Assembly: GCF_964213995.1 (NCBI RefSeq)
Contig: NC_135808.1
Coordinates: 12,958,001 to 13,022,000, forward strand
Direction: 5' to 3'
Length of the DNA stretch: 64,000 nucleotides
From: Mustelus asterias
Taxonomy: Eukaryota
This document shows positions 32,599 through 36,827 of this stretch, in pieces (within the stretch, counting starts at the first letter, position 1; the number at the start of each line of letters is the position of its first letter). The notes under the pieces were generated by a model. The model did no database searches. It was not told where the DNA came from and saw only the letters and a program-made list of their open reading frames with translations. The position numbers and the translations under genes are program-made.

Positions 32599-32904
32599 CA
32601 ATGAGTTTCAGAGATGCACTCCATTTTAATTTGTCACCGACAGTCATGTGATAAACCCCTTGGTCACTGGGGTTTAAATCGTTTAACGTCAGCGACCCAT
32701 TGGATGAATTGAATTGTAAGCGAGATGTGAAGTGCTTATTTGGTTCCGCCATTGGGAGACTTGGCACGTAATCCAAAATGGTAACCAGCTTCCCATTGCT
32801 GCCGATGAATGCCCACATAACTTCACTCTCGCTGAGATTGGCTTCATGCTCTGGATCCAGTAAAACCGAGGAACCACGGACACCAAATACTTTTCTTCCT
32901 CCGG
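32599..32904 (-). CDS. Exon 2b: Cys-less IgV domain, tandem copy B
   Basis: Identical acceptor/donor and length (306 bp); 11 nt differences from copy A (6 non-synonymous, 5 synonymous), no stops or frameshifts. Confidence 0.9.
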
Positions 32905-33159
32905 CTGAATAACATAAAACAGCAAATGTAATCTCTCGAAGTGTGACAGTGAAACACTGATATTCAATCTTCTTTTGTTCTCCCCCTGCCCCCTACTTCC
33001 TCTTGCTTATAAACTCCGATATTTCTACCTTCCTTCCACTCTGATGAAAGGCCGTCCCAACCTGAATCTCTGTTTCTCTCCACAGATGCTGCCTGATCTG
33101 CTGAGTGTTGAGGAAAGTTGGAAAGACAGACCCTCGTCCACAAAGTCTCCACGGCTTTG

Positions 33160-33490
33160 GGCGGCACGGTGGCACAGTGGTTAGCACTGCTGCCTCACAA
33201 TGCCAGTGACCCGGGTTCAATTCCGGCCTTGGGTGATTGTCTGTGCAGAGTCTGCACGTTCCTCCTGTGTCTGCGTGGGTTTCCTCTGGGTGCTCTGGTT
33301 TCCTCCCACACTGGTTTAGATGGATTGGCTATGTTAAATTGCCCCTTGGTGTCATGGGCATTAGCAGGCTAAATACCTGGGGTTACGGATGGGGTCACAG
33401 GGATAGGGTCTGGGTAAGATGTGGTCGCTGCAGGCTTGATGGCCGAATGGCCTCCCTCTGCACTGTAGGGACTCTTTGATTCTATTCTAT
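33160..33490 (+). repeat. HE1/V-SINE-type tRNA-derived SINE (representative; roughly 25-30 full or partial copies across the window)
   Basis: A/B-box head ggcacggtggcacagtggttagcactgctgcctcac...ggttcaattcc, conserved core gcgtgggtttcctc..gtgctc, CR1-like 3' tail. Confidence 0.9.
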
Positions 33491-33773
33491 GATTCAAGGT
33501 TTCCTGTGAGACACATTGTCTGAAATCCCAAAACGAAACGCAATCTCAATCTGATATTGCCCACCCTTACCCTTCACTACCAGTCCTCTATTAAAAGCTT
33601 CCAACTATCTGGTTCAAAAGCCCTCCAGTCCTGGAGGGTTGACAACCCTAAGCATGAATGTGAGAGCTCCCGGGTTCAAGTTCCAGACAAGACAAGGGTT
33701 TTGTGGATGGCACACTGGTTAGCACTGCTGCCTCACATCGCCAGGATCCCAGGTTCAATTCCAGCCTTGGGTC

Positions 33774-33775
<2 letters not shown>

Positions 33776-33806
<31 letters not shown>
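33776..33806 (+). repeat. (TG)n microsatellite expanded inside a SINE
   Basis: Direct reading. Confidence 0.9.
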
Positions 33807-33808
<2 letters not shown>

Positions 33809-34375
33809 AGTTTGCACATTCTCCCCATGACTGCATGGGTTTCCTCCAGGTGCTCTGGTTTCCTCCCACACTCCAAAGATGTGCGGGTGAGGTTGATTGG
33901 CCATGCTAAAATTGACCCTTCGTGTCAGGGGGTCTAGCTAGGGTATATATGTGAGGTTACGGGAATAGGGGCTGGATGGGATTATTGTCGGTGCAGGCTC
34001 GATGGGCCAAATGGCCTCCTTCTGAAATGTGGGAATTCTATGATAGGCCTGAATCCAGAGTCCATATGGGCAATCCTTCCAATCCTTTCACACACAGGGT
34101 GGTGAGTGTCTGGAACAATCTGCCAGAGGTAGTAGTAGAGGCGGGTACAATTTTGTCATTTAAAAAGCATTTAGATAGTTACATGGGTAAGTTGGGTATA
34201 GAGGGATATGGGCAAAACGCGGGCAACTGGGACTAGCTTAGATGTTTAAAAAAGGGGTAGCATGGACAAGTTGGGCTGAAGGGCCTGTTTCCATGCTGTA
34301 AACCTCTATGACTCTATGAATATGGAGTCAATGGAAATTGATTTTTTTTTGTCATCTGAGTGGCAACACTTTCAA

Positions 34376-36505
34376 CAAAGAACAAAGAACAATACAGCAT
34401 AGGAACAGGCCCTTCGGCTCTCCAAGCCTGCACCGATCATGTGTTCCTAACTAGACCATCCATTTGTATCCCTCTATTCCCAGTCTGTTCATGTGGCTAT
34501 CTAGATTAGTCTTAAATGATCCTAGCATGTCTGCCTCAACCACCTTGCTTGGTAGTGCATTCCAGGCCCCCACCACCGTCTGTGTAAAATACGTCCCCCG
34601 CATATCTGTATTGAACCTTGTCCCCCTTACCTTGAACTTCTGACCCCTTGTGTTTGTCACTTCCGATCTGGGAAAAAGCTTCCAACTGTTCACCCTATCT
34701 ATGCCCTTCATAATTTTATAAACTTCTATTAGTTCGCCCCTCAACCTTCGTCTTTCCAGGGAGAACATCCCCAGTTTACTCAATCTCACCTCATAGCTAA
34801 GACCCTCCATACCAGGCAACATCCTGGTAAACCTTTTCTGCACTCTCTCCAAAGCCTCCTCGTCCTTCTGGTAGTGTGGCGACCAGAACTGGACGCAGTA
34901 TTCCAAATGTGGCCTAACCAACGTTCTATATAACTGCAACATCATATGACAAATTTTATACTCTATGCCCCATGCAATAAAGGCAAGCATGCCATATGCC
35001 TTCTTCACCATCTTTTCCACCTTTAAGGGTCTGTGGACTTGCACACCCAGATCCCTCTGTGCGTCTATACTCCTGATGGTTCTGCCATTCATTGTATAGC
35101 TCCCCCCTGCATTAGATCTACCAAAATGCATCACTTCGCATTTATCTGGATTAAATCCCATCTGCCATTTCTCCGCCCAATTTTCCAGCCTATCTATATC
35201 CTGCTGTATTCTCTGACAATGTTCATCACTATCCGCAACTCCAGCAATCTTTGTGTCGTCTGCAAACTTACTAATCAGACCAGCTACATCTTCTTCCAAA
35301 TCATTTATATATATCACAAACAGCAGAGGTCCCAGTACAGAGCCCTGCGGAACACCACTAGTAAGAAGTTTAACACTAGGTTAAAGTCCAACAGGTTTAT
35401 TTGGTAGCAAAAGCCACACAAGCTTTTGGAGCCTTAAGCCCCGAAGAAGGAGCTTAAGGCTCCGAAAGCTTGTGTGGCTTTTGCTACCAAATAAACCTGT
35501 TGGACTTTAACCTGGTGTTGTTAAACTTCTTACTGTGTTTACCCCAGTCCAACACCGGCATCTCCACATCATGAACACCACTAGTCACAGATCTCCAATC
35601 AGAAAAAGACCCCTACACTGCTACCCTCTGTCTTCTATGGTCAAGCCAGTTCTGTATCCATCTAGCTAGTTCACCTTTGATCCCATGAGATCTAACCTTT
35701 TGCACCAGCCTGCCATGAGGGACCTTATCAAATGCTTTGCTAAAATCCATGTAGACGACATCCACGGCCCTTCCCTCGTCAATCATTTTTGTCACCTCCT
35801 CAAAACACTCAACCAAATTTGTGAGGCATGACCCTCCCTCGTACAAAACCATGTTGTCTATTGCTAATGAGACTATTCAGTTCTAAATGTGTATAGATCC
35901 TATCTCTGAGAATCTTCTCCGACAATTTCCCTATCACCGGCGTCAAGCTCACTGGCCGATGATTACCCGAGTTATCCTTGCTACCCTTCTTAAATAACGG
36001 GACCACATTTGCTATCCTCCAATCCTCTGGGACCTCACCTGTGTTTAATGAAGAAACAAATATTTCTGTTAAAGGCCCAGCAATTTCATCTCTTGTCTCC
36101 CTCAGTAATCTAGGACAGATGCCATCTGGCCCAGGGGATTTGTCTACCTTAATGCTTCTTAAAATAGCTAACACTTCCTCCCTTGTAATTGCGATTTGTT
36201 CTAATGGGTCTACACATCCCTCTGAGACACTACCAATCAACGTGTCCCTCTCCTTTGTGAATACTGGTGCAAAGTATTCATTTCGGATCTCACCTACTTC
36301 CTTGGGCTCTAATCATAATTCCCCTCCTTTGTTCTTGAGAGGTCCGACTCTTTCTCTGACAACCCTCTTGTCCCTAACGTATGTATAAAATACCTTGGGA
36401 TTCTCCTTAATCCTGTCTGCCAAGGACATTTCGTGACCTCTTTTTGCCCTTCTAACTCCCTGTTTGAGTTCTTTTCTACTTTCTCTGTATTCCTCCAAAC
36501 GAGAA
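34376..36505 (-). mobile_element. CR1 LINE inserted just 3' of the exon 2a donor
   Basis: ORF2 fragments 34451-36524; the flanks join up into the uninterrupted sequence seen at 32521-32598. Confidence 0.92.
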
Positions 36506-36521
36506 GATCCAAATGACTCAC

Positions 36522-36827
36522 CAATGAGTTTCAGAGATGCACTCCATTTTAATTCATCATCGACAGTCATGTGATAAACCCCTTGGTCACCAGGGTTTAA
36601 ATCATTTAACGTCAGCGACCCATTGGATGAATTGAATTGTAAGCGAGATGTGAAGTGCTTATTTGGTTCCGCTATTGGGAGACTTGGTACGTAATCCAAA
36701 ATGGTAACCAGCTTCCCATTGCTGCCGATGAATGTCCACATAACTTCACTCTCGCTGAGATTGGCTTCATGCTCTGGATCCAGTAAAACTGAGGAACCAC
36801 GGACACCAAATACTTCTCTTCCTCCGG
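36522..36827 (-). CDS. Exon 2a: Cys-less IgV domain (CD2/SLAM/CEACAM N-domain type), copy A
   Basis: ttatgttattcag| acceptor, 306 bp open frame AGGREVFGVRGSSVLLDP...EVMWTF...SRLQFNSSNGSLTLNDLNPGDQGVYHMTVDDELKWSASLKLI, |gtgagt donor; V-set W and DxGxY motifs, no Cys; phase 1-1. Confidence 0.9.

Follow-up and report, generated by a model that had tools for sequence, protein, structure and literature searches.

A tandem immunoglobulin V exon duplication spliced in series in an MHC-linked shark gene for a predicted five-pass receptor

A 64,000-nucleotide (nt) stretch of the Mustelus asterias genome (NCBI RefSeq assembly GCF_964213995.1, contig NC_135808.1, positions 12,958,001 to 13,022,000), hereafter called the window, contains a gene in which the exon for an immunoglobulin (Ig) V domain is present twice. 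Both copies, V-A and V-B, are flanked by AG and GT splice signals, have phase 1/1 ends and an open frame, exceed the Pfam V-set cut-off (34 and 37 bits) and encode no cysteine. They differ at 11 nt, six of them replacements and five silent. Read from V-B to V-A, the replacements are E4K, T31A, I51M, G79S, D89G and E91K; charge is altered in three, and VDDEL becomes VGDKL. A first-pass annotation of the window had described two intact 306-bp V exons with 11 nucleotide, six amino-acid and three charge changes, and these figures were exact on recount. The last 56 nt of the two acceptors are identical, as are the donor 9-mers and the final 33 nt of the exons themselves.

Because the window holds a single signal exon, both V exons belong to one gene. 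A V-B query retrieved a RefSeq protein at 100% identity, 'uncharacterized LOC144496861', with isoforms of 585 and 483 amino acids (aa). The longer, RefSeq isoform X1, is the exact translation of 12 window exons, and isoform X2 is the same protein minus V-A. The layout is signal-V-V-C2, then five hydrophobic segments encoded by separate phase-1 exons, with a further exon of 87 nt for a loop (Table 1). Each of the 10 internal exons is phase 1/1 and has a length divisible by 3. The C2 domain carries the canonical cysteine pair, and a motif scan of the cytoplasmic tail found nothing like an immunoreceptor tyrosine-based inhibitory or switch motif (ITIM or ITSM).

The tandem V duplication is real, lies inside one gene and is spliced in series. 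We compared one V exon with the contigs of four sequencing runs (X1, X3, X4 and X6). In X1, X3 and X4, which come from organisms A, B and C and from three studies, contigs break off at the exon ends and include the joint 32904>32599, where a V end runs back 306 positions into a V start. Contigs of X6 continue into both introns and lack the V-V joint, and this run behaves as DNA. In X1, the signal exon leads into a B-type start, the V-V joint into an A-type start and a V end into C2; no signal-to-V-A joint was seen among the X1 contigs, which drop rare forms and so are not proof of its absence. In X3, five differences from V-A mark the V end that leads into V, all five listed being V-B-type sites, whereas seven mark the V end that leads into C2, which is A-type at exon sites 236, 237 and 272 with private changes besides. 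Since these two V ends differ in sequence, two exons exist in that organism as well, and a circle formed from a single exon is unlikely. Two distinct exons in the same order thus predate the split of the sampled organisms. Short reads cannot separate a B-to-C2 from an A-to-C2 joint because the last 33 nt are shared. In X1 and X6 the middle of the exon shows A-type letters only, and the contigs listed for X6 include none for the flank behind V-B; contigs drop variants, and neither point counts as evidence.

These joints bear on two proposals of the first-pass annotation. That both copies are included, giving a longer ectodomain, agrees with the V-to-V joints in three of the four runs and with the RefSeq V-V-C2 model, which matches letter for letter. 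That they are used alternatively to vary the binding face finds no support, the signal exon having been seen joined to a B-type start only. Among the junctions at issue, signal to V-B, V to V and V to C2 all occur in contigs.

The duplication is larger than the exon. Positions 32572-33312 and 36496-37227, comprising the exon and its upstream intron, are 92.9% identical over 742 nt, and the downstream intron copies (31862-32534 and 33374-34065) are 80.5% identical over 706 nt. Identity is highest, at 99%, over the last 100 nt upstream of the acceptor, and falls to 96.4% in the exon, 94.4% farther upstream and 84.5-88.6% downstream. Unique intron differences number 9 at 244 sites upstream of the exons versus 33 at 213 sites downstream (p=1e-5). 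Because the upstream intron is so much more alike than the downstream one, we infer that gene conversion later homogenised the exon together with its acceptor side. The duplicated unit ends within copies of short interspersed elements (SINEs), and an old unequal crossover between such copies probably created it. The flanks of V-A and V-B differ so much that two alleles are unlikely.

Table 1. Exons of the V-V-C2 gene and parts of the intron behind V-B (window positions; LINE, long interspersed element; TM, transmembrane segment; residue numbers are those of P0003)
Feature	Position	Strand	Remarks
Exon 1 coding part, signal peptide, phase-1 donor	40546..40612	minus	joined to B-type V start in run X1
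V-B, outer (membrane-distal) cysteine-free IgV exon	36522..36827	minus	306 nt; Pfam V-set; splice joints
LINE (reverse transcriptase) fragment, ~2.1 kb	34376..36507	minus	14 nt behind V-B donor, absent behind V-A
Remainder of intron behind V-B	33374..34375		80-88% like 31862-32574 behind V-A
V-A, inner (membrane-proximal) IgV exon	32599..32904	minus	306 nt; Pfam V-set; splice joints
C2/I-set Ig exon with extra conserved Cys (C191) before F strand	26458..26727	minus	V-to-C2 loose ends in runs X1 and X3
Predicted TM1 exon, 132 nt, phase 1	22978..23109	minus	
Predicted TM2 exon, 105 nt	22125..22229	minus	
87-nt exon lengthening the predicted first outer loop	20180..20266	minus	in this orthologue group; absent in most paralogues
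Predicted TM3 exon, 120 nt	17297..17416	minus	
Predicted TM4 exon, 96 nt	14918..15013	minus	
Second outer loop with conserved Cys (C398) and predicted TM5, 102 nt	12790..12891	minus	
Cytoplasmic tail exon 1	9077..9163	minus	
Final coding exon, includes stop codon	7437..7516	minus	

Two further repeats lie in or near the gene. Intron 1, between the signal exon and V-B, holds a 1.6-kb purine-rich minisatellite with a 27-29 nt unit (38200-39800). About 1 kb upstream of the start codon stands a Gypsy-type long terminal repeat (LTR) retrotransposon (41632-46257), whose 257-nt LTRs are 98.4% alike and whose 1334-aa open frame encodes protease, reverse transcriptase, RNase H and integrase; the element is young and could affect the promoter of the V-V-C2 gene.

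The hydrophobic segments are predicted to cross the membrane five times, with the N terminus outside and the C terminus inside. An AlphaFold model of the whale shark homologue P0123, built with 62 sequences, has a mean confidence (pLDDT) of 82.6 and five long helices, and the median net charge of successive loops alternates +2/-1/+3/-1/+2 (54-60 rows). Two cysteines stand out in the alignment: C191 in the C2 domain is Cys in 55/60 rows and C398 in the second outer loop in 54/57. Of the 52 rows in which both sites can be scored (10 of 62 cannot), 49 have both, two have neither and one has a single cysteine, counts that come from related rather than independent rows. A disulphide is predicted to tie the second outer loop to C2. 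The transmembrane part found no match in the protein Atlas, and a ray protein consisting of that part only gave weak matches, to cytochrome-oxidase-subunit proteins.

The gene has many relatives close by. Between 12.16 and 13.48 Mb, contig C8 has 12 of the genome's 13 V matches and 15 of its 37 C2 matches, one of the 15 being partial, and we count about 14 paralogues in this cluster. Transmembrane exons were mapped in this genome for the window gene and one paralogue, and both have five predicted passes. Three side observations concern other members of the cluster. A paralogue at L107:1362-1658 and 8709-9026 (G000:C8:12.48 Mb) carries an old, diverged second V-type exon between V and C2, ~26-31% identical to V and shared with catshark models. 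Behind the C2 exon of another lies a partial second C2 copy (L108:4163-4336; G000:C8:12.394 Mb). At L036-L038 (G000:C8:12.61-12.76 Mb), three near-identical paralogous V exons on a long branch mark a recent whole-gene triplication.

Beyond M. asterias, a profile search returned dozens of full-length relatives, automatically named 'HEPACAM-like' or 'uncharacterized'; those named so far come only from sharks, rays and the chimaera Callorhinchus, in a profile list crowded by titin/hemicentin-type proteins. Among the architectures of five-helix members are V-C2, V-V-C2, V-C2-C2, V-V-V-C2 and V-V; models that lack C2 (V-TM and V-V-TM) occur in rays. Some ray proteins have 11 predicted membrane helices and two or three V domains (P0002, P0022-P0027 and P0073). 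A chimaera member matched generic Ig clusters in the protein Atlas. Searches confined largely to the open literature gave no description of this five-pass Ig family, and term look-ups in PMC9952779, PMC12227049 and PMC10210626 turned up no mention of it.

Doubling of an ectodomain exon recurs across this family. In a 59-row V tree, the two V domains of one gene are sisters in the window gene (support 100/99), in Heptranchias (100/97), in Pristis (96/82) and in Hypanus, where they are identical. C2 is doubled instead of V in two catshark orthologues (92-94%) and one Heterodontus gene (92-99% across the three genes). Neither domain is doubled in the orthologues of white shark, basking shark and bamboo shark, which carry a single V and a single C2. 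For a Pristis gene (522/421 aa) and a Hypanus gene (434/332 aa), the models include a double-V as well as a single-V isoform. V or C2 was doubled independently in several lineages, a pattern that suggests tuning of ectodomain length; because doubling is recurrent and not confined to V, length is favoured over the binding face as its object.

The cluster lies on the contig that carries the major histocompatibility complex (MHC). All 145 MHC class I matches in the whole genome (145/145) fall on contig C8; class I served as marker because MHC class II beta gave no match in the genome. Of four Notch NOD matches, the weakest (57 versus 85-88 bits) is at 11.90 Mb on C8, and 10 of 150 flanking open reading frames (ORFs) are EGF repeats, at 11.96-12.00 Mb; we read the two together as a probable NOTCH4. 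No named host gene appeared in the right flank (13.49-13.69 Mb) among 87 of 161 ORFs scanned. We take BTNL2 to occupy this side of NOTCH4 in the human genome. The PMC10751288 supplement places the white shark orthologue LOC121291109, unlabelled in its MHC table, at chr19:95.28 Mb with NOTCH4 at 96.55 Mb, and sawfish LOC127585946 and LOC127585772 at 9.12-9.40 Mb with NOTCH4 at 8.89-8.98 Mb; the gene it labels SLAMF is another gene, at 114.5 Mb. The reedfish gene LOC114656864, entered there as HEPACAM-like, is a candidate relative outside the cartilaginous fishes. Between the Notch gene and the cluster lies a short retroviral env-like fragment (L096:8871-9227; G000:C8:12.09 Mb; Pfam TLV_coat, E 2.6e-5). 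A second, well-conserved Notch gene on the MHC contig (G000:C8:54.88 Mb) suggests a chromosome fusion.

Between V-A and V-B, there is no sign of positive selection. The proportions of replacement and silent differences are pN 0.026 and pS 0.074 (ratio 0.35, p=0.07 against neutrality), which gives no backing to the pathogen-driven receptor of the first-pass annotation. Its V-V-C2 ectodomain is supported; it had overlooked the five predicted membrane passes and the MHC location. Across organisms, the 3' third of the outer copy lies 0-1/101 nt from V-B, the range reflecting one ambiguous site, and that of the inner copy 7/101 (Fisher p 0.014-0.065). This divergence fits a conserved outer binding domain and a relaxed inner one. 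Mapping the replacements onto a structure, as the first-pass annotation had suggested, puts T31A, D89G and E91K on the C, F and G strands, in a model of low confidence. The C, F and G strands form the ligand-binding face of CD2/CEACAM-type V domains.

Combining these observations, we lean toward the reading that the main product is a V-V-C2 protein with five membrane passes: its outer V would bind a partner on another cell, with the inner V adding reach. The outer V would likely remain the binding domain, and the inner V would likely serve mainly as a spacer that lengthens the arm. Ectodomain length may be the selected trait, and the protein may act as a cell-contact immune receptor; given a tail free of ITIM- or ITSM-like motifs, it would signal via lateral partners. 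Several points weigh against this reading. The RNA status of the runs is unrecorded or guessed, and runs were judged by their spliced joints; contigs lose rare forms and variants, so that isoform shares are not measurable; the RefSeq models may rest on the same assembly and are then not independent of the window; the doubled domains of other species are gene models whose splicing is unchecked; and the window's own protein, modelled at full length, scores poorly (pLDDT 48.5). In addition, T31A, D89G and E91K on the C/F/G face would also fit a second binding site.

That last point opens the reading in which each of the two serially arranged V domains binds, with the inner V diverging in C-F-G charge for avidity or a second specificity. 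Besides the position of the three changes, codon 89 of the inner copy was altered on two separate lineages, to Gly here and to Asn in run X3, and between organisms the inner copy changes faster than the outer. We nevertheless consider it rather improbable: the pN/pS ratio speaks against it, relaxed constraint explains the faster change equally well, and the catshark orthologues arrive at three domains through a second C2, which adds length and no new V face. About equally hard to credit is a tolerated, nearly neutral duplication, in which symmetric phase-1 exons amid dense SINEs duplicate readily and conversion keeps the copy intact. The uniform exon phases and lengths, the SINE copies at the unit's ends, the conversion mark in the introns and the three sharks with one V and one C2 would all be expected, yet in three organisms the inner copy has an open frame and is spliced, and three-domain arms arose repeatedly in the family.

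Alternative cassettes, with V-A or V-B chosen or V-A skipped under regulation to vary the face, could account for the RefSeq isoform with V-B only, the single-V and double-V models of Pristis and Hypanus and the identical core splice signals of the two exons. We judge this very unlikely, as V-V joints occur in three organisms and X1 has no signal-to-V-A contig; moreover, skipping V-A keeps the same outer V, which changes length and not face, and the shared 33-nt 3' tail can give false skip junctions in short-read mapping. Least credible of all is an artefact, either two haplotypes assembled in tandem, as the first-pass annotation had feared, or a back-spliced circle of one exon. The equal depth of A-type and B-type 3' contigs in X6 (12.1 and 11.4) would suit two alleles no less than two loci, and the listed X6 contigs include none for the flank behind V-B. 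Against this, the two introns that follow the copies share only 80-88% identity and are set apart by a 2.1-kb LINE, spliced V-V joints show both copies in use in three organisms, and the two V ends of X3 differ.

Exon doubling alone is ordinary and already modelled in RefSeq; the MHC-linked five-pass Ig family is the larger finding. The entry for LOC144496861 carries no description of function, topology or family, and ~14 genes with Ig ectodomains lie by the probable NOTCH4 on the MHC chromosome, a position they also take in white shark and sawfish. That the arm grew repeatedly and independently, from two Ig domains to three, offers a natural experiment on ectodomain length. A more ambitious reading, which we regard as unlikely, is that this is an overlooked cartilaginous-fish MHC family of five-pass Ig receptors beside NOTCH4 with CD47 ancestry, serving as an MHC-linked self-marker or counter-receptor whose reach is tuned by V or C2 doubling.

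Known systems resemble this gene in part. In mutually exclusive cassettes of the Dscam type, duplicates are not joined to each other and each joins the upstream exon; here V is joined to V in three of four runs, and the signal exon to a B-type start only (contigs of one run). CEACAMs share an N-type V lacking the disulphide, and the C2 domain finds its best structural matches in CEACAM1 and CEACAM6 (Z 12.6-12.1, root-mean-square deviation (rmsd) 2.2-2.3, 87-88 aligned). CEACAMs are single-pass or anchored by glycosylphosphatidylinositol (GPI), with ITIM or ITAM tails, whereas the shark protein has five predicted passes and no ITIM-like tail motif. LIPE marks the CEACAM locus, according to PMC3628338. 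Of the synteny markers LIPE, CNFN and ATP1A3, LIPE was the one compared; it lies at C20:6.69 Mb, unlike the shark cluster on C8; separate C2-type matches occur near it, at 5.6-6.0 Mb on C20.

The CD2/SLAM group (CD48, CD244/2B4 and Ly9, the last with V-C2-V-C2) shares the arrangement of a V lacking cysteine ahead of a C2. By sequence, CD48 and CD150 match weakly (E 0.3-0.8), and at E<=1 Pfam finds Receptor_2B4 in 32/62 relatives and SLAM in 10/62. SLAMs are single-pass or GPI-anchored with ITSM tails, in contrast to five predicted passes and no ITSM-like motif here. We take the SLAM locus to be the neighbourhood of nicastrin, which in this genome sits on an unplaced small contig, C4643.

CD47 is the closest in build: an Ig ectodomain on five predicted helices, N terminus out and C terminus in, with a short tail and a conserved cysteine in the second outer loop for which the nearest Ig domain offers a candidate partner, the bond being predicted here. 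In CD47, according to PMC8410850, the Ig domain is bonded to the second extracellular loop through C15-C245. A BFVD search gave only two matches at E<=0.001, both poxviral CD47 homologues of the OPG166/A38L type (287 and 327 columns aligned), whose superposition is poor (TM-score 0.23, rmsd 22-24 Å); three further CD47-type rows stood in the top 35, and TM-scores over these rows and the two matches are 0.19-0.26, with rmsd >20 Å. V-set_CD47 matched weakly in 14/62 members (best E 6e-4). The Pfam CD47 membrane domain (PF04549) had no match at E<=1 in 11/11 proteins and was not among the best 25 of 114 Pfam families for the 62 members, and CD47 was absent from five PDB fold lists, each filled by one domain (Ig domains or generic bundles).

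The differences from CD47 are equally concrete. CD47 has a single IgV directly on TM1 and is one gene, whereas the shark gene has V-V-C2, V domains lacking the canonical disulphide and a family of ~14. The human CD47 locus presumably adjoins IFT57, which in this genome is at C2:56.77 Mb, away from the C8 cluster. Genome-wide, Pfam CD47 had 0 matches and V-set_CD47 two weak ones elsewhere; the 200 kb behind IFT57 held no CD47 candidate exon in a search that had no positive control, and none of the 60 ORFs scanned there (of 196) matched a CD47 family. Directly behind IFT57 lies a ZPBP/Sp38-like gene (L044 and L048; G000:C2:56.80-56.85 Mb). By its predicted topology, the shark protein is built like CD47; homology or membership is not supported, and two defining CD47 features fail. 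Be it kin to CD47 or convergent, the family supplies a missing part of the ancestral MHC as it is now reconstructed, and with it the question of where CD47's membrane domain came from can be put to the test.

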